DNA of 64,000 nt, taken from assembly GCA_964560005.1 (NCBI GenBank), contig CAZLKB010000002.1, forward strand, positions 381-64,380, given 5' to 3'. Source of the DNA: an uncultured Gammaproteobacteria bacterium (GTDB taxonomy: Bacteria; Patescibacteriota; Patescibacteriia; Patescibacteriales; GWC2-42-12). Below are positions 2,694 through 56,757 of the stretch, one piece after another. The position numbers and the translations under genes are program-made. The notes under the pieces were generated by a model. It was not told the origin of the DNA and searched no databases. It saw nothing but the letters and a program-made list of their open reading frames with translations. Position 1 is the stretch's first letter, and each line of letters opens with the position of its first letter.

Positions 2694-4283
2694 ATGGAAC
2701 ATTCAAAACCAGAAGTAGAAATATACGACACGACTCTGCGCGACGGATCGCAGGGCGAAGGGATTAGTTTTTCGGTGATGGATAAATTACGCATCGCCGA
2801 GCGGCTGGACGCCTTCGGGGTGGGCTATATTGAAGGCGGCTGGCCAGGTTCTAATCCAAAGGACATTGAGTTCTTCAAACAGGCGAAGGGCAGGACATTC
2901 AAGAACGCCCGTCTGGCCGCTTTCGGTTCAACGCGGCGCAAGCAGGTCGCGGTGGAGAACGACGAACAGGTACAGCGGCTCTTGGAGGCGGAAACACCGG
3001 TGGTAACGATCTTCGGCAAGAGCTGGTTATTACATGTGCGACAAGTTCTGGGCACCACGCCGACGGAGAATCTTAAAATGATCAGAGATACCGTGGATTA
3101 TCTAAAGGATTCAGGGAAGATCGTGGTTTATGACGCCGAGCATGCCTTTGATGGTTACAAAGATAATCCCGAATATGCCTTAGCTACCTGGACGGAGGCG
3201 GTAAACGCCGGGGTTCATGTGCTGACCTTGTGCGATACCAATGGAGGAACTTTGCCGAGCGAAATTGAGCGGATTGTTCTGGCCGCACGAGCATGCCTAC
3301 TTCCCGGCGGGAAGCTGGGGATTCACACGCACAACGATATCGGCATGGCTGATGCCAACGCCTTAATGGCGGTTGAAGCCGGAGCAGTTCATGTGCAGGG
3401 CACTTTCAACGGCTACGGCGAGCGGACCGGCAACTGCAACTTAACGACTGTTTTGCCCAACCTGGTCTTTAAGATGAAGCGAAATTGCATGCCAGATGGC
3501 TCGTTGGCGCAGTTGCGCGAGGTATCGCAATTCGTGGATCAGATCGCCAATCAGCGTCATGATCCGCGCCAACCCTGGGTAGGCTCAACGGCGTTCGCTC
3601 ATAAGGGCGGTATGCATGTTGACGCGGTGAAGAAGGTTGCCAGCAGTTTTGAACACATTGACCCGACGGTGGTGGGAGTCTCTAGGCGAGTGCTGGTCAG
3701 CGAACTGGCCGGACGGAGCAATATTTTGCTTAAAGCTCGAGAACTGGGTTTCACCCTAACCGAAGATATGCCGGAACTAAGATTAATATTGGTTCGGGTC
3801 AAACTCTTGGAAAACGAGGGCATTGAGTTCGAGGCGGCTGAAGCTTCGCTGGCGTTGCTGATTAGTAATATCCTTACGTCCGGGTCGCCGCCTTTTACCG
3901 TCGCCGGTTATCATGTCTCCATGCGCCGAGGCGACTCTGATTCAGTCTGCGAAGCTACCATTAAAGTGCGTGTCGGCGAACAAACTTCTCACAAAGTCGC
4001 GGAAGGCGACGGTCCGGTCAACGCGCTGGATTCGGCCTTGCGAGCGGCGCTGGTGGAGTTTTATCCGCAACTCCAGCATGTCGGGTTGACCGACTATAAG
4101 GTACGCATTCGGGACAGCGCCAGCGGTACAGCGGCGATTACTCGGGTTTTAATCGAGTCTTCGGACGGGCATGATGAATGGGGCACGGTCGGCGCCAGCG
4201 AGAATATCGTTGAGGCTAGCTTAATGGCGCTGGAAGACAGCTATGCCTACGCCTTATTAAAGAGCGTAAAAAAGGAGGAGTAA
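2694..4283 (+). CDS. cimA: citramalate synthase / 2-isopropylmalate synthase family (CimA-type, with C-terminal LeuA-dimer-like regulatory domain)
   Basis: 529-aa ORF; EIYDTTLRDGSQGEGISFS, HTHNDIGMADAN and GERTGNCNL motifs. Confidence 0.8.
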   Translation: MEHSKPEVEIYDTTLRDGSQGEGISFSVMDKLRIAERLDAFGVGYIEGGWPGSNPKDIEFFKQAKGRTFKNARLAAFGSTRRKQVAVENDEQVQRLLEAETPVVTIFGKSWLLHVRQVLGTTPTENLKMIRDTVDYLKDSGKIVVYDAEHAFDGYKDNPEYALATWTEAVNAGVHVLTLCDTNGGTLPSEIERIVLAARACLLPGGKLGIHTHNDIGMADANALMAVEAGAVHVQGTFNGYGERTGNCNLTTVLPNLVFKMKRNCMPDGSLAQLREVSQFVDQIANQRHDPRQPWVGSTAFAHKGGMHVDAVKKVASSFEHIDPTVVGVSRRVLVSELAGRSNILLKARELGFTLTEDMPELRLILVRVKLLENEGIEFEAAEASLALLISNILTSGSPPFTVAGYHVSMRRGDSDSVCEATIKVRVGEQTSHKVAEGDGPVNALDSALRAALVEFYPQLQHVGLTDYKVRIRDSASGTAAITRVLIESSDGHDEWGTVGASENIVEASLMALEDSYAYALLKSVKKEE

Positions 4284-48409: not shown

Positions 48410-48712
48410 TTATTTCCACTTATCCACATACTGGCCAAGTCCGTATTGATTTAGTTTATTTAAAAGTTTAGTTTTTGTATGTAAATAGGCGATTAAGGTA
48501 GGGAAGTCTATTAAATAGCGGTTACTAATTATTTTATATTTAATGTAGTTAAACTGGATAGCCCGGCGGATCGTTTTAGTTTGCACACCGCCTAGTTTAG
48601 CGGCTTCGGATACAGAAACCCAGATAGGATTAATAATTTGGCTATTTATACCATTTTCCTGTTTATTTTCTAATTTTTGGTTGTTTTTAAGATTAAATTG
48701 GTTTTGTACCAT
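48410..48712 (-). CDS. helix-turn-helix DNA-binding protein (MerR/excisionase-like HTH)
   Basis: WVSVSEAAKLGGVQTKTIRRAI motif; palindromic sites immediately upstream. Confidence 0.65.
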   Translation of the reverse strand: MVQNQFNLKNNQKLENKQENGINSQIINPIWVSVSEAAKLGGVQTKTIRRAIQFNYIKYKIISNRYLIDFPTLIAYLHTKTKLLNKLNQYGLGQYVDKWK

Positions 48713-48721
48713 CTTAGAGTT

Positions 48722-48747
48722 TAAGTCTACATTATCGTAGACTTAAG
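48722..48747. promoter_or_regulatory. candidate operator palindrome 1 (GTCTAC-N6-GTAGAC core)
   Basis: ttaagtctac attatc gtagacttaa, perfect 10-bp arms. Confidence 0.5.
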
Positions 48748-48757
48748 TTTAAGGGTA

Positions 48758-48799
48758 ATATGACTTTAGTCTACGGATATGTAGACTAAAGTCATATTT
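48758..48799. promoter_or_regulatory. candidate operator palindrome 2
   Basis: aatatgactttagtctac ggatat gtagactaaagtcatatt, perfect 18-bp arms. Confidence 0.5.
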
Positions 48800-48827
48800 A
48801 TCACTTTTTATATTAAAGTCCACAATA

Positions 48828-48879: not shown

Positions 48880-48975
48880 GGGGCAAAACTCATAATTTGT
48901 AACTCATAACCCATAGCTCATAACTCACAACTCAAAGATTCAATCAATAACGAGTTAATGAGTTGCGAGACTTTC
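48880..48975. repeat. palindromic element, aactcataac family
   Basis: aactcataatttgtaactcataacccatagctcataactcacaactc versus aacgagttaatgagttgcgag. Confidence 0.75.
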
Positions 48976-49171
48976 ATCTATATGTTATTATATTAAATGC
49001 AAATATTCTCTAGCTGGACGGAATCCCGCAATGAGAAAAAAATAGCTAATATTAAATAATAATTTCGTTTTCTCACGACTATTTTTTTATTTATCAATAA
49101 AATTTAATTCATATTACTTAAATGATTGTGTATTTTAGTGTAACAATATCTAACATTTATCGTATAATTAA

Positions 49172-49753
49172 ATGAAAATAGGCAGAATAGAAGAAAAATT
49201 GTTATTATATAAAATCAGCAAAAATGATAAAAACGCCTTTATAAAGGCCTATGATTTATATGTTGATCAGTTGTACAGGTTTATTTATTTTAAGGTAGGA
49301 AATCGGGAAGAGGCCGAAGATTTATGTTCATGGGTTTTTTTAAAAACATGGAATTATATATTAAAGAATAGCTTGAAGGATTGCAAAACTCTGAAAGCCT
49401 TGCTCTATAAAATTTCCAGAAATTTAATAATTGATCATTATCGGAAAACCAAGGGACGAGAAACTGTGAGCTTGGATGATGAGGGTGGAATTAAAATTAC
49501 CGACGAAAAACAAAACCTTAATGACAGTTTGGAGCTTAAAGCCGACTTATTAGTTTTAGAAACTAAATTGCCGGAGTTGAAAGACGAGTATAGAGAAATA
49601 ATAATTTTACGCTTTATCAATGAGCTTTCAATTACAGAAATCTCCGAAATTCTAGATAAGCCTAAAGGCAATATAAGAGTTTTAATTTATCGGTCGCTTA
49701 ATGCCTTAAAAGAACTTTTAAGTCATAATGAAAAAATTAATTTGAATACTTAA
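49172..49753 (+). CDS. sigma-70 family (ECF-like) RNA polymerase sigma factor
   Basis: 193 aa; region 2 (YDLYVDQLYRFIYFKVGNREEAEDL, LIIDHYR) and region 4 HTH (LSITEISEILDKPKGNIRVLIYRSL). Confidence 0.85.
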   Translation: MKIGRIEEKLLLYKISKNDKNAFIKAYDLYVDQLYRFIYFKVGNREEAEDLCSWVFLKTWNYILKNSLKDCKTLKALLYKISRNLIIDHYRKTKGRETVSLDDEGGIKITDEKQNLNDSLELKADLLVLETKLPELKDEYREIIILRFINELSITEISEILDKPKGNIRVLIYRSLNALKELLSHNEKINLNT

Positions 49754-49787
49754 TATTTTGACCACCTTGTTAAAGAGGGCGAACATT

Positions 49788-50708
49788 ATGAACGATCAAG
49801 AGCTTCTAAAAAAATTAAATAATTTAAAGGAAATTAAACCTGATAATAATTGGAAAAGAAATTATCGGGATGTTTTGTATAGCCAAATTTCCGCCGGTCA
49901 GCCTGAAGTTGAGCCAAAATCAAATATAAGAATAATTTGGGAGAGCATTATGCCGCGCCAAATTTTAATAAATTTGGCTAAGCCGATCCGGTTGGCGTCA
50001 GCGGTCAGTGTTTTAGTTTTAGTGATTGGCATCGGCGGCGTCTATGCCTCAAAAAATTCCAAGCCGGGCGATTCTTTATATATTGCAAAGATTATTAGCG
50101 AGAAAGCGCAATTCGCCATAACTTTCGACGAAAAAGATAAAGCTAAATTAGGTATAGAGTTTGCAGCCAATCGCGCTAAAGAAATGATTCAGGTTTTAAA
50201 GGATACCGGGCAAGATGTTACGGTTAATAGTGATAAATTAGAAAAATTATCACAAAGTTTTAAAAAAGAAATCAGTCAAGCGAAAAATAGATTATCTACG
50301 ATTAAAGCGGCTATTAAAGTAACCGAAGATCAGGTCGAAGCTCTTGATTCCGAACTTGAAGTTTTTGGCGCTAACTTAGGCAAGGACAATAATAGAATGG
50401 AAATTTCCGAACCGGTTAAACCGGAGCCAGAACTTAATCAAATCATCGCCCCGAAGCCGGATAAACCAAGTCCTGAAGCTAACGCGGCTACTACTACGGG
50501 ACCAGTTTTAGAAAGTCAAGCCGTGACCGGCGCCACTTCAACGGCAGGAATGGTTAATCAGACTGATAAAATGCTTGAGCAAGTGGAAAAATTGTTTGAT
50601 GAAAAAAATTTAGACGGAACCATAGGCGCGCTGGAAGAAGTAAGTAAAGTTATAGAAGACGCGGGAGAAGTTAAAGGCGCGAGCGAAACGGCTACGAGTA
50701 CTAAATAA
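49788..50708 (+). CDS. anti-sigma-like membrane protein (single TM, DUF5667-like extracytoplasmic domain)
   Basis: adjacent to the sigma gene; TM AVSVLVLVIGIGGVYA; PGDSLYIAKIISEKAQFAITF pattern; function inferred from context. Confidence 0.5.
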   Translation: MNDQELLKKLNNLKEIKPDNNWKRNYRDVLYSQISAGQPEVEPKSNIRIIWESIMPRQILINLAKPIRLASAVSVLVLVIGIGGVYASKNSKPGDSLYIAKIISEKAQFAITFDEKDKAKLGIEFAANRAKEMIQVLKDTGQDVTVNSDKLEKLSQSFKKEISQAKNRLSTIKAAIKVTEDQVEALDSELEVFGANLGKDNNRMEISEPVKPEPELNQIIAPKPDKPSPEANAATTTGPVLESQAVTGATSTAGMVNQTDKMLEQVEKLFDEKNLDGTIGALEEVSKVIEDAGEVKGASETATSTK

Positions 50709-50927
50709 AATTTTTAATTTTGTAATTTAGAATTTAGAATGAATGATTAATTTTTAATTTAAAAATTAATTCATTAAAAATTCAATCAAAATTTAAAATT
50801 AAATTATTAATACGGAATAGACTGTTTGTCTTAATGGCGAGTAGTCTAATCCGCATTAAGCGGGTTACGGTAAAGTTATAAAGGGTCGATCCATTTCGAT
50901 GGAGATTTTACCAAATTAATTAATCAA

Positions 50928-51259
50928 CTCGTTTTTTTAAATTCTATGTTCCGGGTTCGTCCCGGAATTATGTCTCGCGATTGATCGTTGCGGGATACCA
51001 AGCAAATCAGCAAGCTAACCCCCCACACTTGTGAAAACAAGCAGGGGAGGAGAATTTCCCATGCTCACGGCAAAGTCCGTGTAATAAATTTTCCCCCGAT
51101 TAATAATTCAGAATTACGAATTACGAATTAAATTCGAAAATCGAAATTCTAAATTCGAAATTGTTTCCACGGGTGTGGGGGAGGCGGGATTCCGGTTGAT
51201 TTGCTTGCCTCGTCGTAGCTTTTAGCGAAGGCGGGCTTAAACATAATTTAAAAAACGAG
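50928..51259 (+). promoter_or_regulatory. GC-rich nested-helix structured region upstream of the surface-protein gene (candidate long 5' leader or ncRNA)
   Basis: ctcgttttttt/aaaaaacgag closing pair; ttccggg-ttcg-tcccggaa hairpin; caagcaaatca+ccccccacac pairing with gtgtggggg+tgatttgcttg. Confidence 0.4.
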
Positions 51260-51306
51260 ACAAGGACCCCGATTGAATAATATTTAACGGGGTAAATAAA
51301 TAACCT

Positions 51307-54300
51307 ATGGAAAGATTCAAGAAAATCTTTGCCGTTGGCGTAATTTTCGTCACTGTCTTATCAATGAGCGTAGTTGTGGCCCCCGAGGCCTCTGCGACCG
51401 CTTCAGCCGGTGACTTAATCAAGATGAGCGGACTTTCATCCGTTTATTACTTGGCCGCCGATGGCAGGAGATATGTTTTCCCTAATGAGTCAACTTATTT
51501 TTCCTGGTACAGTGATTTCTCCGGAGTTGTGACTATTCCTCAAAGCGAGTTAGAGTCATATCCTCTAGGAGCTAACGTTACTGTTAGACCGGGTACTAAA
51601 TTAGTTAAAATAACTACTAATCCCAAAGTTTATGCTGTTACTTCCGGCGGCGTTTTAGTTGCCATTCCCGATGAAGCTACAGCCGCGACTTTATATGGAG
51701 CCAATTGGAATAAGAGGATTATTGACGTGTCCGATGCATTTTTTACTAATTACACGATCAGTTCAAGCGTAGTCAGCGCATCCGCTTATCCACAGGGCAG
51801 TTTAGTGAAGTATGGAACGTCACCCGATGTTTTCTTTACCAATTCCGACGGTACAGCTTCAAAAATTGCTACCGAAGCGGCTTTCTTAGCCAACAGATTT
51901 AAATGGGCTGATGTTATTACCGCCACGATTGCCAAGCCGACCGAAGGCGCTGGCATTTCAGGCGCGGTTGCCACTTTGCTTGACACCTCGTCAGGCGCGG
52001 GCGGCACTATCGGCGCAGGCACTGGTTTGACTGTGGCTTTGGCTTCAGACACACCGGCTGCCGGCAATATTCCTGCCGGTTCACCGACCCAATTCTTAAA
52101 GATTAATTTAACCGCTTCCAACGATGGCGCGGTTAGCGTTAATGCTATTAAGCTAAAGGCTTTCGGGTTAAGCACCGCTACTAACATTGACAGCGTTACT
52201 TTCTATGATAACGGCGTCAAAGTTGGCACGACCAAGAATATAAATTCCGACAAAGAAGCGGTCTTTAATTTCTCCACACCGATCGTAGTCGCGGCCGGAA
52301 CCACTAAATCATTAGTGGTTAAAGCCACGATTTTAGCGGGTCAAACAGGCAGCTATGCCTTAGGTATTGCCGCCGCCACTGATATTACCACCAATGGAGC
52401 GGCCGTCAGCGGCAGCTTCGCTTTGGTAGGTAATACTCAAGCGATTGTTTCCAGCACTTCTATCGGCACGGTTACCATGTCAAACGTCGGTGCTTCCGAC
52501 ACTACCAACGATTTCGGCGAAGACAATGTCTTATTAGCCAAATTTGACTTAACGGCGGCTAATGAACCGGTTATCTTCTCATCCTTCGCCATGAAGAATG
52601 GAGGAACCAATACTGCCGGCATTGTTGGCAACATGAGAGTGGTAATTGACGGCACTGAAGTCGTTAAGGGCGTTGAATTAGTTGATAAATTCGCTACTTT
52701 CAGCCTAAACACTGTTATTGCCAAAAACGACACTATTACCGTTGAAGTTTACGGCGATATAGGTATTGCCACCGCGGCTGATACCATTAAGATGTATTTT
52801 GACGATATCGGTGATTTAATTTTCACCGGCCAGGATTACGGCTATGGTATAGAACTTACCTCTACAGCATCTGGCTTCCAGTCCTTAGACACGGTTACTA
52901 CCGATGGTATTATAGTAACTTTAGCGGCTGGCAACGTTACTCTTGATATGGATAAAACAGCCACTCCGTCTAAAGACGTTAGACCGGGTGATAACGGTGT
53001 AATTCTAGCCACCATTAAGATCGCTTCATTAGGTGAGAACGCCACTATTACCGCTATTCAAGAAAATGGCAGTGATGAATTTGTCATCACCGGCACAGGC
53101 TTAGATTGCGGAGAAATTGATAATGTGGTTTTAAGAGATACCGGTACCGGAGCGACTTATGATGTGACCGTAGCCTCTTCAACCGACACGACCAAGTGCG
53201 GTTTAACGATTTCTGACGAAATCGCTTTAGTTAAAGGCTTTACCAAGACTTATCAGCTTAAGGCGGATTTAGGCGGATCAAACGATACTAAAGCGGTTGA
53301 CTCTACTGATACTTTGCAGGTTGTCTTAGAAGACGGCGCTTTCACTATTACCGGTGATGTTTCAGACGCTGATTTATCCGATGATATCACCCCGACGTCA
53401 GTTTCAAGCGGTATCGCTACGGTTAAGAGTTCTTCTCTAAACTGGACCACCACCGCCTTGACTAATAAGACGATTGTACCAAGCGCGAAGGATGTGATTA
53501 TTTACCAGGCCAGTGCTGAAGCGGGCGCGTCTTCCGCGGTTACTTTAACTACGGTTAGATTGACCTCCACTTCTACTAACGCTTCGGCGTTTAACGACAA
53601 CAATGTATCCCAGTTAAAGCTTTATGTTGATGGCAAGCTGGTTAAGACGGCTGCCGGAACCATTGTTGAGGGCGACGGCACAACCGCAGGCTATATCAAC
53701 TTTACTTCTCTTGACACTACCAACAGGGTAATTCCTGCCGGCAAGATCGTTACAGTAGAAGTTAAAGCTGATTTCGCTTCAACCTTCAGTCCGGCCGGTT
53801 ATATTACGCTGGCTGTAACTGATTCAGCCTCCAGCATTGTGGCTCAAGACATTGACAGCAATGCCGTGGTAGAAAGCATTAAGAATGAAGACACTCTGTC
53901 CAGGAACGTTATCTTAGCTTCAGCCGGTACGCTGAAAGTTGAGTTAACCAAGACTGACCTAAAGTCTAATGCCAATACTCTCCTCTTAGCAGGCAGTAAG
54001 ATTACTTCCGGAGATAAATATCTCGGCAAGCTGACTTTCACTACCGCTAATGAACCGATAAAGATTAAGACTTTAGTCTTGGGCCAACAGGGTACGGCTA
54101 AAGCCGATGATATTGCGTCTGTTGAGTTATATGACAAGAACGAAGTTCTGGTAGCTTCAAAAGCTGTCTCTACTCTCGGTGATGTCAATTTCAGCGATTT
54201 AAATTTAATTTTATCCGCTGATAACGCGCATGAATATTTCATCGGTGTAACCGCTAAAGGCATTAACGTAGAGAATGATCCTACCGCTACGGCCGATGAC

Positions 54301-54999
54301 TCGGAAACCATAATCTTCACCTTGGCTTCTTCTACCCAGCTAACCCAACTCGGTATTACCGGAGGAAATAACGCGGTTACCGCCGTGGGTGTGGACTTGG
54401 GCGATGATATTGACTGCGTAGAAGATACGGATGGTACTGTATCTGTCGGCGGCTATGCGTCATGGGGCGTTGCTACTTCTACTACCGCGACTATACACGG
54501 TGCAATATTGACCTCTATTACCAATCCGATGTCCAACACAACTTTATCCAATGGTCAAAATCAGATCATTGGTAAGTATAAGCTTGTGTTCCAGAACGGC
54601 AGTAATAGAAACAGCGATAATACCGAGCTAAAAGCGCGGTTGGTATCGTTCGGTTTAACCGTTGCCACCTCAAGTGGAATGAGCTTGTCCAATTTCCAAG
54701 CCTATATTGAGGGCGATGCCGCCAATAAGACCGACGTAGTTGAAGATCTCACCGGAGTAGCTACTCCTCTTTTCGTTGATTTAGACGGGACTACGGAGGA
54801 TGTAGACGGCGAAGTTACCATCGTCATTGAAGCCGATATTGAAGGCACCGATGGCACCGCCGACTACGTACAGACCAGTCTCGCTGATTTGTCTTCTTCC
54901 GCCGTCGTCTATAATGGCAATAATGGCACTTCAGGCAGTAACGTAACCAATACCTTATTGAACATTTCTGAAGTATTGGGCGCGAAGTTATCTAACTAA
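51307..54999 (+). CDS. very large secreted surface protein (S-layer/adhesin-like, Thr/Ser/Ala/Val-rich beta-repeat architecture)
   Basis: 1230 aa; signal peptide ending ASATASA; no Cys-rich or enzymatic motifs; strong terminator at 55039. Confidence 0.8.
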   Translation: MERFKKIFAVGVIFVTVLSMSVVVAPEASATASAGDLIKMSGLSSVYYLAADGRRYVFPNESTYFSWYSDFSGVVTIPQSELESYPLGANVTVRPGTKLVKITTNPKVYAVTSGGVLVAIPDEATAATLYGANWNKRIIDVSDAFFTNYTISSSVVSASAYPQGSLVKYGTSPDVFFTNSDGTASKIATEAAFLANRFKWADVITATIAKPTEGAGISGAVATLLDTSSGAGGTIGAGTGLTVALASDTPAAGNIPAGSPTQFLKINLTASNDGAVSVNAIKLKAFGLSTATNIDSVTFYDNGVKVGTTKNINSDKEAVFNFSTPIVVAAGTTKSLVVKATILAGQTGSYALGIAAATDITTNGAAVSGSFALVGNTQAIVSSTSIGTVTMSNVGASDTTNDFGEDNVLLAKFDLTAANEPVIFSSFAMKNGGTNTAGIVGNMRVVIDGTEVVKGVELVDKFATFSLNTVIAKNDTITVEVYGDIGIATAADTIKMYFDDIGDLIFTGQDYGYGIELTSTASGFQSLDTVTTDGIIVTLAAGNVTLDMDKTATPSKDVRPGDNGVILATIKIASLGENATITAIQENGSDEFVITGTGLDCGEIDNVVLRDTGTGATYDVTVASSTDTTKCGLTISDEIALVKGFTKTYQLKADLGGSNDTKAVDSTDTLQVVLEDGAFTITGDVSDADLSDDITPTSVSSGIATVKSSSLNWTTTALTNKTIVPSAKDVIIYQASAEAGASSAVTLTTVRLTSTSTNASAFNDNNVSQLKLYVDGKLVKTAAGTIVEGDGTTAGYINFTSLDTTNRVIPAGKIVTVEVKADFASTFSPAGYITLAVTDSASSIVAQDIDSNAVVESIKNEDTLSRNVILASAGTLKVELTKTDLKSNANTLLLAGSKITSGDKYLGKLTFTTANEPIKIKTLVLGQQGTAKADDIASVELYDKNEVLVASKAVSTLGDVNFSDLNLILSADNAHEYFIGVTAKGINVENDPTATADDSETIIFTLASSTQLTQLGITGGNNAVTAVGVDLGDDIDCVEDTDGTVSVGGYASWGVATSTTATIHGAILTSITNPMSNTTLSNGQNQIIGKYKLVFQNGSNRNSDNTELKARLVSFGLTVATSSGMSLSNFQAYIEGDAANKTDVVEDLTGVATPLFVDLDGTTEDVDGEVTIVIEADIEGTDGTADYVQTSLADLSSSAVVYNGNNGTSGSNVTNTLLNISEVLGAKLSN

Positions 55000-55731: not shown

Positions 55732-56757
55732 ATGAGAAAACTATCATTATTATTTTTATTGTTCTTGCTCCTGCCTTTTAATTTAGCGCTGGCGGAGGAT
55801 AATCTAGCCTCAAAGTTAGCGGGCAGAATATTACTTCAGGTTGAAGCCCACGGCGAGGCCTGGTACGTTAACCCAGCCAGCGAAAAAAGGTTTTATTTAG
55901 GCCGCCCGGCCGACGCTTTTAAGATTATGCGAGAGCAGGGGCTGGGAATAAATAATAAAGATTTTAATTCATTTAATGATTTGGCTCCGGTGAGATTGGC
56001 CGGTAAAATTTTACTTAAGGTAGAGGATCTGGGCAAAGCCTATTATGTCAATCCGGTTGATTTGAAAATGCATTATCTAGGCCGGCCGGCCGACGCTTTT
56101 AACTTAATGAGAAACCTGGGGCTGGGTGTAACTAATAGTAATTTAGCCTTGATTTCCATAGATGAAAAATCCAGTCCGGTTATCACCGGAGAAACTACAA
56201 ATCAAAATAATTCCGAAAGCCAAACATCCGGTGAAACCGCAGCACCGGAAACCGGAACGACGACTACTACAGAAGAAAGCACTGTTGCTACCAGCACTCC
56301 AGACAGTACGGCGGGGGGCACGGCCACCACCAGTCCGGTGGTTATTGAAGATACGACCGAGAACGCTACTTCATCGGCATGTGTTTGGCTGGTAGAATAC
56401 TATGATAACAGGGTATTATTCGGAGAGCCGATCGCGACCGGCACTAGCCAAACCATAGATTTTGACTGGGGAACCGGGGGGCCGAGTCAAATATATAAAG
56501 TTGATAATTTTTCTATACGTTTTACCGCTAATTGTGATTTTCTAGACGGCAATTATGAGTTTAGAACTATTTTTGACGATGGCATCAAAGTTTATCTGGA
56601 CGGGGAAAATTTTATGCAATCATGGGCTGATAATAATAGAGAGATGATATTTAACAGAGAAAGAAATATAACCGCAGGCAGCCATGAAGTAAAAGTTGAG
56701 TATTATGAGAATACCAGAAACGCTAAAATTAAGGTGTCTTGGGAAAAAATAAATTAG
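55732..56757 (+). CDS. secreted protein with two N-terminal GRILLQVE...WYVNP...YLGRPADAF repeats, Thr-rich linker and C-terminal PA14 domain
   Basis: signal peptide; duplicated about 50-aa motif; C-terminus WLVEYYDN...FSIRFT...DDGIKVYLDG...VKVEYYE typical of PA14. Confidence 0.8.
   Translation: MRKLSLLFLLFLLLPFNLALAEDNLASKLAGRILLQVEAHGEAWYVNPASEKRFYLGRPADAFKIMREQGLGINNKDFNSFNDLAPVRLAGKILLKVEDLGKAYYVNPVDLKMHYLGRPADAFNLMRNLGLGVTNSNLALISIDEKSSPVITGETTNQNNSESQTSGETAAPETGTTTTTEESTVATSTPDSTAGGTATTSPVVIEDTTENATSSACVWLVEYYDNRVLFGEPIATGTSQTIDFDWGTGGPSQIYKVDNFSIRFTANCDFLDGNYEFRTIFDDGIKVYLDGENFMQSWADNNREMIFNRERNITAGSHEVKVEYYENTRNAKIKVSWEKIN

Follow-up and report, generated by a model that had tools for sequence, protein, structure and literature searches.

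A conserved structured RNA ahead of a surface-protein gene in a Falkowbacteria-type genome and its possible pairing with an upstream candidate small RNA

Between a DUF5667 anti-sigma-like gene and an open reading frame (ORF) for a protein of 1230 amino acids (aa), a 64-kb stretch of DNA (contig CAZLKB010000002.1; the whole stretch is termed here the window) contains a region of multiply nested helices. An earlier note had read it either as the long stabilizing 5' untranslated region (UTR) of a surface-protein messenger RNA (mRNA) or as an independent noncoding RNA (ncRNA). The question raised by this locus is what such a region is: the start of a message, a separate gene or something else, and what its parts might do. 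The analysis described here indicates, with little room for doubt, that it holds a real, conserved, cis-acting structured RNA element specific to this one gene. The best overall explanation, which is favored on balance though by no means firmly, is that this element is the modular leader RNA of an operon encoding an extracytoplasmic function (ECF) sigma factor, an anti-sigma factor and the surface protein, and that an exposed bulge within it docks a partner acting in trans.

A folded, covarying element linked to one gene

The + strand of positions 50810-51306 folds with a minimum free energy (MFE) of -179 kcal/mol, as compared with a mean of -123 +/- 6 for shuffled sequences (z = -8.9), and none of 100 shuffles was as good. 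The complementary strand is less stable (-146.9 kcal/mol, z = -5.9), which is as expected of an RNA with G.U-containing helices on the + strand; such pairs are common in the conserved helices, one pair of the basal helix of the core, for example, being UG 20 times among 50 distinct sequences. All of the pairings that had been proposed from the letters alone are present where they had been placed, and the element as a whole extends over 50807-51292 (+), that is, over a folded RNA of ~480 nucleotides (nt). Its description as GC-rich holds only relative to the preceding spacer, which has 9-18% GC; in absolute terms the region has 33-53% GC compared with 41% for the whole window. Its core sequence is unique within the window, and only an AT-rich apical stretch (~51111-51162) resembles other spacers.

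Relatives were collected by scanning GTDB representative genomes with residues 1-298 of the 1230-aa protein, which gave 107 confirmed matches, of which 80 loci were kept, and by scanning JGI metagenomes with the most conserved block of the element, GCGGGATTCCGRYTGATYT, which gave 120 matches. In total the element is found directly upstream of orthologues of the 1230-aa protein in ~140 Falkowbacteria-type loci, with ~100 distinct core sequences among them. The 300-700 nt upstream of the gene show nucleotide-level conservation: nhmmer run with a single sequence detects ~28 loci, and an nhmmer profile 51 of the 80, at the same position. A covariance model of the 5' domain (termed here R1) matches ~55 of the 80 loci, in every case on the + strand and at a distance of 100-600 nt ahead of the gene, with no convincing copy elsewhere in 671 kb. 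Among the metagenome matches, 69 have an orthologous gene starting 59-229 nt downstream, 7 have the sigma and anti-sigma genes upstream on a contig that ends before the surface gene would start, and one more (L198) is a truncated genuine core; about 43 lack both the pairing partner strand and the hairpin H3 described below, a number that agrees with a rough estimate of ~60 matches expected by chance. Because the verified copies all lie upstream of surface-gene orthologues, the element is taken to be strictly gene-linked.

When compared with Rfam 15 at the gathering threshold, the whole window yields only 5 tRNAs, and the region 50600-51500 searched at E <= 10 yields only chance-level matches far below gathering, so that this check, which the earlier note had proposed, assigns the region to no known family. 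The element is a new, previously undescribed RNA family. Its covariation with homologous upstream regions, the second check proposed, supports four of its helical parts--H1, H3, P1 and the core helix--through compensatory changes, as follows.

The 5' domain begins with a long hairpin, H1 (50807-50859, +), in which 5' UUAAUAC... pairs with ...GCAUUAA and whose apical half is variable in sequence. It had been noted as an 11-bp hairpin at 50813-50853, which understates it: the MFE structure has 17 pairs, and it is comparative data that give the wider limits. When the proposed structure is laid upon an alignment of relatives (A3), 9 of the 24 pairs of H1 show double-sided changes; the outer part, UUAGYGC/GCRYUAA, covaries, with UUAGCGC/GCGUUAA taking the place of UUAGUGC/GCAUUAA in the wider set. 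RNAalifold applied to another alignment (A1) predicts an alternative small hairpin, H2 (50850-50864, +; UCCGC-AUUAA-GCGGG), which reuses the CCGC at the base of H1, so that H1 and H2 are mutually exclusive. Relatives have CCAC/GUGG or CCGU/ACGG in place of CCGC/GCGG, and where CCGC has changed to CCAC or CCGU the partners in both H1 and H2 follow; that is, both hairpins tolerate the same changes in the strand that they share.

Next comes H3 (50869-50912, +), which consists of a 9-bp stem, an 11-12-nt 5' bulge and a 5-bp hairpin. The bulge (50878-50889) reads AUAAAGGGUCGA, with consensus NNAAAGGUCGA, and contains the near-invariant motif AAAGGUCGA. The two helices of H3 are 97-98% paired across the alignment and have double-sided changes at 3 of 9 and 4 of 5 pairs, respectively. 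For H1 and H3 taken together in 14 sequences, 92.3% of the cells are paired and 16 pairs show double-sided changes, which none of 500 shuffles matches and which compares with 33-46% paired in slid controls. Of the 80 loci, 58 have the sequence AAGGTCG in the 500 nt ahead of the gene (1 of 80 has its reverse complement there), a few loci having two or three copies of it, and it is found also in Uhrbacteria-type loci, to which the H3 module extends. An AU-rich linker, AAAUUAAUUAAUCAA (50913-50927, +), leads from the 5' domain to the core; it includes TTAATTAAT, which is invariant in 14 close relatives and less conserved in distant ones.

In the leaders of four loci (L049, L058, L072 and L080), a module of AAAGGUCG plus a hairpin occurs in two to three tandem copies, a pattern that suggests repeated binding sites for one factor. 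Several further interpretations of the 5' domain were considered and set aside. A k-turn in H3 is contradicted both by the GA of the 3' strand, which covaries as Watson-Crick pairs (UU/GA, CC/GG and CU/AG, at alignment pairs 77-109 and 78-108), and by the 11-12-nt length of the bulge, a k-turn requiring tandem sheared G.A pairs beside one of 3 nt. A pseudoknot between AAUCCGC in the 3' arm of H1 and GCGGGAUU fails in that loci with AAUCCAC keep GCGGGAUU unchanged. Kissing of the H3 bulge (CGAUC) with the P3 loop (GAUCG) was likewise discarded, inasmuch as the H3 segment concerned is variable and distant members of the family lack P3. As for a conserved upstream ORF within the leader, the short ORFs of the window fall within optional hairpins.

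The core is closed by P1, a long-range helix between a 5' strand, CUCGUUUUUUUAAAUU (50928-50943, +), and a 3' strand, AAUUUAAAAAACGAG (51245-51259, +), which is supported both by the MFE structure and by the alignment. The pairing first noticed as 50928-50938 with 51250-51259 is therefore real, given that it covaries (CUCG/CGAG vs CUUG/CAAG, and U-A vs C-G vs U.G); in alignment A1 individual P1 pairs take the forms CG/AU/UG, UA/UG/CG and UA/CG/UG. Within P1 there are two further hairpins ahead of the main core helix. The first, P2 (50949-50967, +), is optional: it occurs with compensatory changes in the window and in four relatives (L012, L002, L005 and L011) and is absent in six others. It had been described as a UUCG-tetraloop hairpin; the hairpin is there, but instead of a canonical C(UUCG)G it has a G-C-closed 5-nt loop, UUCGU, and many relatives lack it. 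The second, P3 (50973-50995, +), has a conserved loop, GAUUGAUCG, and a covarying stem (CG/UA), with GCGATTGATC conserved in close relatives; it is not recognizable in distant sub-families.

The two-segment helix described earlier (50999-51009 with 51197-51207, and 51019-51028 with 51173-51181) is likewise real. Its basal segment, P4, pairs AAGCAAAUCAGCA (51000-51012, +) with GGUUGAUUUGCUU (51194-51206, +). Among 50 distinct sequences 90% of the P4 cells are paired--a figure inflated by the fact that the 5' strand was partly located by its complementarity, which tells against the reading favored here but leaves the compensatory changes unaffected--and 9 of 13 pairs have double-sided changes (101 cells), which none of 500 shuffles equals; the slid controls give 21-45%. 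Beyond P4 the 5' side of an internal loop reads AAGCUAA (51012-51018, +), or AAGCUUUU in a divergent group of relatives termed here sub-family B, and AAGCU is kept in nearly all of the ~100 distinct cores. Its GCU can pair with an RGC just 5' of the bulge discussed next, and two loci (L046 and L061) change both sides, to AUU/AAU. Helix 2, which is the second segment, and a variable apical domain together occupy 51019-51181 (+) and include a hairpin at 51029-51042. Of the small hairpins that had been listed as enclosed by the long helix, cttgt-gaaa-acaag covaries (CUUAU/AUAAG in relatives), whereas cacgg-caaagt-ccgtg, although present, is confined to this window. The apical domain measures only ~20-45 nt in some relatives, and the anchors of the core are merely 43-68 nt apart in five loci.

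On the 3' side, between helix 2 and P4, lies an invariant bulge, GCGGGAUUCC (51184-51193, +), which contains GGGAUUCC (51186-51193). The corresponding DNA motif, GGGATTCC, is found upstream of the gene in 62 of the 80 genome loci and its reverse complement in none; the sole variant seen is GGAAUUCC, in 3 loci. The central GAUU of the bulge is predicted to be unpaired (P = 0.93-1.0), and a scan for a conserved intramolecular complement of either AAGGUCG or GGGAUUCC returned only scattered, chance-like sites. After P4 another optional hairpin, P5 (51208-51236, +), occurs in some relatives and is absent in four (L002, L001, L007 and L034).

These modules differ in how widely they are kept. In sub-family B, where the primary sequence is largely different, H3, the core basal helix with an apical sub-structure and a hairpin ahead of the start codon are predicted to be retained; RNAalifold yields 69 pairs there, 32 of them with double-sided changes, and a P1-like pairing of wholly different sequence is visible by eye only, RNAalifold not having predicted it. 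One locus (L008) is a natural deletion variant that has the 5' domain and a collapsed P1 hairpin (3950-4001) and lacks the whole core. The apparent loss of the core in L003 (~1480) is uninformative, that stretch being a run of N at an assembly gap. Three parts are optional filler, namely the UUCG hairpin, a hairpin on the 3' side and the apical palindrome rich in AT. The last of these (~51095-51160), although present as described, is missing from close relatives (L011, L028, L007 and L013) and resembles generic AT-rich spacers: palindromic material of the same type (gaattacgaatt or aaattcgaaa) occurs at 50724-50770, 33418 and 62544 as well, in several spacers, and this genome alone has such an insertion in the apical loop of its leader. 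In its behavior the material recalls a small filler that is mobile or able to expand.

A probable intercistronic position ahead of the surface gene

Three genes of the locus are read on the + strand: the ECF sigma factor gene (49172-49753) and the DUF5667 anti-sigma-like gene (49758-50708), both recognized by Pfam and NCBIfam, and the surface-protein gene (51307-54999). The order sigma, anti-sigma, RNA, surface gene is retained on metagenome contigs. The 3' strand of P1 ends 2 nt before a sequence, AAGGA, that resembles a Shine-Dalgarno (SD) motif (51262-51266, +) and is predicted to be unpaired in the window; the region adjoins the gene and is continuous with it, H1 forming a stable hairpin at the element's start. 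Because of this abutment, because no terminator intervenes and because all verified copies are gene-linked, the element is most likely part of the surface-protein mRNA, as the earlier note had supposed. It is the more specific notion of a primary 5' UTR that is not favored, an intercistronic leader being preferred instead.

Several observations lead to this preference. On the + strand of 50400-51600 ahead of the ATG, neither a terminator nor a sigma-70-like promoter was found; no ECF or sigma-70 consensus appears upstream of H1 in relatives; and scans of the leader and of the sequence immediately ahead of it detected no promoter of either type. TTAGTG, considered as a possible -10 box, lacks T at its sixth position and covaries with GCAUUAA. 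In six relatives (L011, L020, L063, L052, L065 and L034) only 2-10 nt separate the anti-sigma stop codon from the start of the element, and the model match in L061 begins 7 nt ahead of that stop, which leaves no room for an intergenic promoter. A textbook ECF-type promoter, GTAAC-N16-CGTA (49140-49164, +), does occur 8 nt before the start codon of the sigma gene, and its counterpart lies upstream of sigma in 67 of 117 loci (a pattern count that includes a few mis-anchored rows), usually ~25-60 nt before the start. Such a promoter before the sigma gene implies autoregulation of the sigma/anti-sigma operon. The simplest reading of this arrangement is a single operon of sigma, anti-sigma, structured RNA and surface protein; that the RNA is its co-transcribed intercistronic leader and acts post-transcriptionally is considered probable.

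Comparable placements are known. In the Rhodobacter puf operon and in Bacillus subtilis cggR-gapA, intercistronic structures stabilize or process the transcript. As here, structured RNA there separates cistrons that need very different expression, with regulators toward the 5' end and an abundant structural protein toward the 3' end; those structures are, however, simple hairpins or cleavage sites without a conserved multi-domain architecture, and processing of the present leader is putative. In seven relatives (L001, L002, L007, L013, L024, L028 and L034) a motif, GCAATGACAAT, often in the form ATTGC...GCAAT enclosing a hairpin, is situated 15-35 nt ahead of H1, between the anti-sigma stop codon and the leader, overlapping that stop codon in L034; it is absent from the window and might serve to direct processing or termination.

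In the window a further hairpin (51267-51292, +) separates the SD-like motif from the start codon, with 14 nt between this hairpin and the AUG. This is the ccccg...cgggg hairpin that had been noticed just before the ATG; it recurs in a subset of relatives, where compensatory changes are apparent by eye (eight relatives: L012, L028, L006, L004, L014, L034, L002 and L001), and is absent in five others (L011, L007, L013, L005 and L040). In four of the latter, namely the short variants L011, L007, L013 and L005, AAAGGA is followed by 8-10 nt and the ATG. Sub-family B has a different, longer hairpin at this place; the resemblance of one of its arms, GUUCCGAC, to AUUCCGAC of the core was considered as possible mimicry and rejected, as the arms covary while the resemblance is not conserved.

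A candidate small RNA complementary to the invariant bulge

Beyond what the earlier note had described, there are the two conserved unpaired motifs, AAAGGUCGA and GCGGGAUUCC, and a complementary candidate small RNA (sRNA) encoded 2.1 kb upstream. This candidate (48998-49096, +; ~100 nt, with approximate ends) precedes the sigma gene, and nhmmer detects it in 28 loci, always on the + strand and 173-376 nt before the sigma start. It has a predicted sigma-70-type promoter (48963-48991, +; TTGCGA, 17 nt, TATTAT, with a TG extension), of which the form TTGCYW-N17-TGnTAWWAT is conserved in an alignment of 27 relatives. A hairpin at 49006-49037 (+), predicted in most of the sequences folded, carries the loop GGAAUCCCGC (49020-49029), and a weak hairpin followed by U7 (49065-49088, +), which is terminator-like, is preceded by a second, covarying hairpin. 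No Rfam family matches the region.

Read as its reverse complement, GGAATCCCGC at 49020-49029 matches the invariant bulge of the leader (51184-51193) exactly, with GGAAUCCC as the part that faces GGGAUUCC. Within the 64-kb window the complementary 8-mer has only these two sites, which by itself is not significant. Across loci, ~30 of 117 have GGAATCCC on the + strand in the 400 nt that precede the sigma gene, where chance would give 0.6% per locus, and it occurs there essentially never in the opposite orientation. The 10-mer of the sRNA is invariant in 20 distinct aligned sequences (27 listed) with diverged flanks, while the stem enclosing it varies as UUCUC/GAGAA, CUCUUGC/GCAAGAG and CUUUUGC/GCAAAAG, its U.G pairs being consistent with the + strand; a column-wise count of its pairs was not possible, inasmuch as differing loop lengths shift the register. 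The 11-mer duplex between 49019-49029 and 51184-51194 is computed at -20.8 kcal/mol, and cofolding pairs exactly these 11 nt. Both motifs are predicted to be exposed: the leader bulge lies between covarying helices, and the sRNA motif, in its hairpin, has a mean unpaired probability of 0.59. RNAduplex applied to the full-length sRNA and leader is uninformative, giving long, unrealistic duplexes that are no better than those of shuffles. Uhrbacteria-type loci have a GGGAUUC hairpin in cis with GGAUCCC, of which L079 has a covarying version, GAGAUUC/GAAUCUU, and the upstream RNA of L004 and L168 has an insertion by which the complementarity reaches into helix 2 of the leader; both observations fit a pairing function. 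Two additional complementarities were rejected: GCAAAU/AUUUGC between sRNA and leader, which is seen in the window but not conserved in relatives, and the second sRNA hairpin (AGCUAA/UUAGCU) as a complement of the leader's AAGCUAA, which covaries as a plain hairpin.

Conserved complementary sequences, both predicted to be exposed, are what loop-loop ('kissing') antisense control calls for, as in CopA-CopT of plasmid R1 and OxyS-fhlA. The likeness to these lies in a short, perfectly complementary sequence that is displayed both by the loop of an sRNA hairpin and by an unpaired loop or bulge of a structured mRNA leader, with the regulator encoded in the same locus. The differences are that the partner here is encoded in trans, 2.1 kb away on the same strand, and hence is not a true antisense RNA; that its target is a bulge in a long helix ~120 nt from the AUG rather than the ribosome-binding site (RBS); and that the pairing is a prediction.

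A coherent mechanism can be proposed on this basis. The structured RNA would be transcribed with the operon from the ECF promoter before the sigma gene and would affect the surface-protein cistron at the post-transcriptional level. Processing would leave H1 as a protective 5' end, and the P1-closed core, beside the SD-like AAGGA, would set or tune translation initiation. The exposed bulge GCGGGAUUCC would be where a trans-acting partner docks, the partner in this lineage being the ~100-nt candidate sRNA with its loop GGAAUCCCGC, and pairing of loop and bulge over 8-11 bp would remodel the core and raise or lower synthesis of the surface protein. One possible use of this pairing would be as a threshold against leaky expression of the operon.

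A number of points weigh against this proposal. For the sRNA itself, the terminator hairpin is weak (4 bp) and was not called by a terminator scan, and the predicted fold is no better than those of shuffles (z = -0.6); its existence, like the transcription start sites and the processing sites, is a prediction. For the pairing, covariation between the two molecules cannot be shown because both motifs are invariant; one sRNA variant (L085; CCAAUCCAGC, with a degenerate loop) is uncompensated in its leader; and a local partner was sought for the three GGAAUUCC leaders and none found. Moreover, 53 of 55 scanned loci, including all those of sub-family B, keep the bulge without a complementary element within the 4-10 kb scanned, from which it follows that the bulge has a function independent of a locally encoded partner: in those loci either the partner is encoded elsewhere or the function of the bulge is older (involving a protein, a ligand or self-pairing) and has been exploited by the local sRNA. 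For translation, the SD-like motif is at least 40 nt from the AUG in the variants that contain the pre-AUG hairpin, and sub-family B has no obvious SD motif, which makes the translation-control step uncertain. Self-dimerization through the quasi-palindrome GGGAUUCC is a possible mode of action of the bulge, the variant GGAAUUCC being a perfect palindrome; the computed self-duplex of GGGAUUCC (-9.2 kcal/mol) is weaker than that formed with the upstream RNA (8-mer, -12.6; 11-mer, -20.8). All in all, a functional pairing between leader bulge and upstream RNA, as modeled here, has close to an even chance of being correct, with the balance tipping slightly against it.

A bolder form of the proposal, which is offered tentatively and is rather less likely than the pairing alone, is that a dedicated sRNA at the head of the operon gates the main secreted surface protein of Falkowbacteria through GGAAUCCCGC-GCGGGAUUCC docking, that the leader defines, within the candidate phyla radiation (CPR), a new class of structured RNA with a regulatory role, and that AAAGGUCGA and the H1/H2 switch sense a further input. 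Patescibacteria (CPR) have tiny genomes with few recognizable regulators, to which a large, deeply conserved RNA with clear covariation would be an addition; a literature search on structured or regulatory RNAs in Patescibacteria found nothing relevant. The element adds a new RNA family for Rfam-type annotation and provides a testable hypothesis for control of the cell surface in host-dependent bacteria. A compact natural loop-bulge pair could also become a genetic tool where inducible systems are lacking, and the need for inducible systems in such organisms has been noted (PMC11665869).

Competing explanations and the wider locus

Among other explanations, the one that survives best, though it is judged unlikely, is that the leader is a passive stabilizer: H1 and other structures would protect a highly expressed mRNA from 5'-dependent decay, the conserved motifs would be contacts for nucleases or ribosomes, and the complementarity to the upstream RNA would have no function. 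The long stable hairpin at the very start of the element agrees with this, as does L008, where the retention of the 5' domain and a collapsed P1 hairpin implies that the core is dispensable there. There is also a precedent in the slpA gene of Lactobacillus acidophilus, where a long structured 5' UTR prolongs the half-life of an S-layer mRNA (PMC3666127). Leaders of the slpA type share with this element the placement of structured untranslated RNA directly before the gene for a secreted surface protein, with a stable hairpin at the start; unlike them, the element is multi-domain, ~2-3 times longer and equipped with invariant unpaired motifs, has no sequence or structural homology to them and is probably intercistronic, behind ECF sigma and anti-sigma genes. 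A stabilizer has no need, however, of unpaired 8-11-mers that are invariant across ~100 diverged sequences, nor of a P1-closed multi-helix core, and the conservation of an exact complement in 27 diverged upstream elements is very unlikely to arise by chance; the mRNA 5' end that stabilization presupposes is, moreover, only presumed.

Slightly less probable again is a riboswitch-like or protein-binding leader, in which the internal loop (AAGCU/GCGGGAUUCC), the H3 bulge AAAGGUCGA or both would bind a small ligand or a protein (feedback by the surface protein itself being one possibility), with H1/H2 or the stability of P1 signaling to translation and with the upstream RNA as an add-on of one lineage. 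The architecture is suggestive of this: a conserved fold with covariation is combined with invariant junction and loop nucleotides, in a P1-closed multi-helix junction beside the RBS, and the mutually exclusive H1 and H2 tolerate the same substitutions. The invariance of the bulge in the 53 loci for which the search returned no complementary RNA nearby would be explained too, and the AAAGGUCG-plus-hairpin modules present in two to three copies look like a repeated protein site. A precedent for an RNA in such a position is the SLH motif, an orphan riboswitch candidate upstream of S-layer-homology genes in Synergistaceae and Firmicutes (Stav et al. 2019, PMC6429828), which is likewise a conserved structured orphan RNA recognized by comparative analysis before genes for cell-surface proteins; that motif, however, belongs to other phyla, no Rfam match links it to the present element, and the latter is far larger and has a complementary partner RNA in its locus. 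What speaks against a riboswitch-like leader is that no Rfam aptamer matches, that the element is bound to a single non-metabolic gene family, which is unusual for metabolite riboswitches, that a complement scan and pairing predictions found no conserved alternative pairing that would sequester the SD-like motif or the AUG, and that L008 lacks the core.

An explanation at the level of DNA is improbable, although the locus has some of the features that it would call for. The 11-bp repeats CGGAATCCCGC (49019-49029) and GCGGGATTCCG (51184-51194) are perfectly inverted, lie ~2.16 kb apart and enclose the ECF promoter together with the sigma and anti-sigma genes, and could accordingly be imagined as the ends of an invertible 2.2-kb segment that would subject the adjoining surface-protein gene, a classical target of phase variation, to switching; alternatively, they might be a pair of operators for a DNA-binding regulator. 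GGGATTCC is, besides, nearly palindromic. Yet no recombinase domain was found among the seven neighboring ORFs scanned; on every contig where the sigma gene was detected, it points the same way with respect to the surface gene; 53 loci keep GGGATTCC while no left repeat was found; and both motifs lie between helices that covary as RNA, with G.U pairs, which is not required of a DNA site.

An independent ncRNA gene, such as a divergent RNase P, 6S RNA or tmRNA lying upstream of the surface gene by happenstance, is highly improbable: the size of the element (~300-480 nt), its complexity and its conserved loops do recall large ncRNAs, but it has no Rfam match even at E <= 10, no tmRNA call by ARAGORN and neither promoter nor terminator of its own, is strictly linked to one gene, which starts 59-229 nt from the core motif, has a P1 3' strand that abuts the SD-like motif, and treats whole modules as optional. 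As to particular classes, AAAGUCCG and GGCGGGCUUA resemble the P4 strands of RNase P, but the topology does not fit and Rfam gives no match; 6S RNA, T-boxes and other known riboswitch classes were likewise rejected for want of Rfam matches. The large, ornate, stand-alone bacterial ncRNAs OLE, ROOL, GOLLD and raiA, all of which are in Rfam, resemble the element in size, in number of helices and in having conserved loops of unassigned function; the element, in contrast, matches none of their models, is gene-linked and abuts an RBS, and large apical parts of it are dispensable.

With regard to the wider locus, the host genome is of the Patescibacteria, Falkowbacteria type: the closest relatives of the 1230-aa protein are encoded in metagenome-assembled genomes labeled Parcubacteria GW2011_GWC2_42_12 (86% aa identity) and in several labeled Candidatus Falkowbacteria. 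The protein has a hydrophobic, signal-peptide-like N-terminus and is probably the dominant cell-surface protein; searches against Pfam, NCBIfam and PDB sequences returned no match, and an S-layer identity has no support from annotation. On its 3' side, a PA14-domain protein (55732-56757, +) has N-terminal repeats (...AWYVNP...RFYLGRPADAF...) like the conserved N-terminal module of the 1230-aa protein, which suggests that the two may share a cell-envelope-anchoring domain for which there is no Pfam model. Finally, at the other end of the locus (48718-48800), two strong inverted repeats built on GTCTAC...GTAGAC, namely TTAAGTCTAC-ATTATC-GTAGACTTAA and ATATGACTTTAGTCTAC-GGATAT-GTAGACTAAAGTCATAT, lie directly upstream of a divergent small HTH_17-like ORF (48410-48712, - strand), and may be operators of the HTH_17-like protein.

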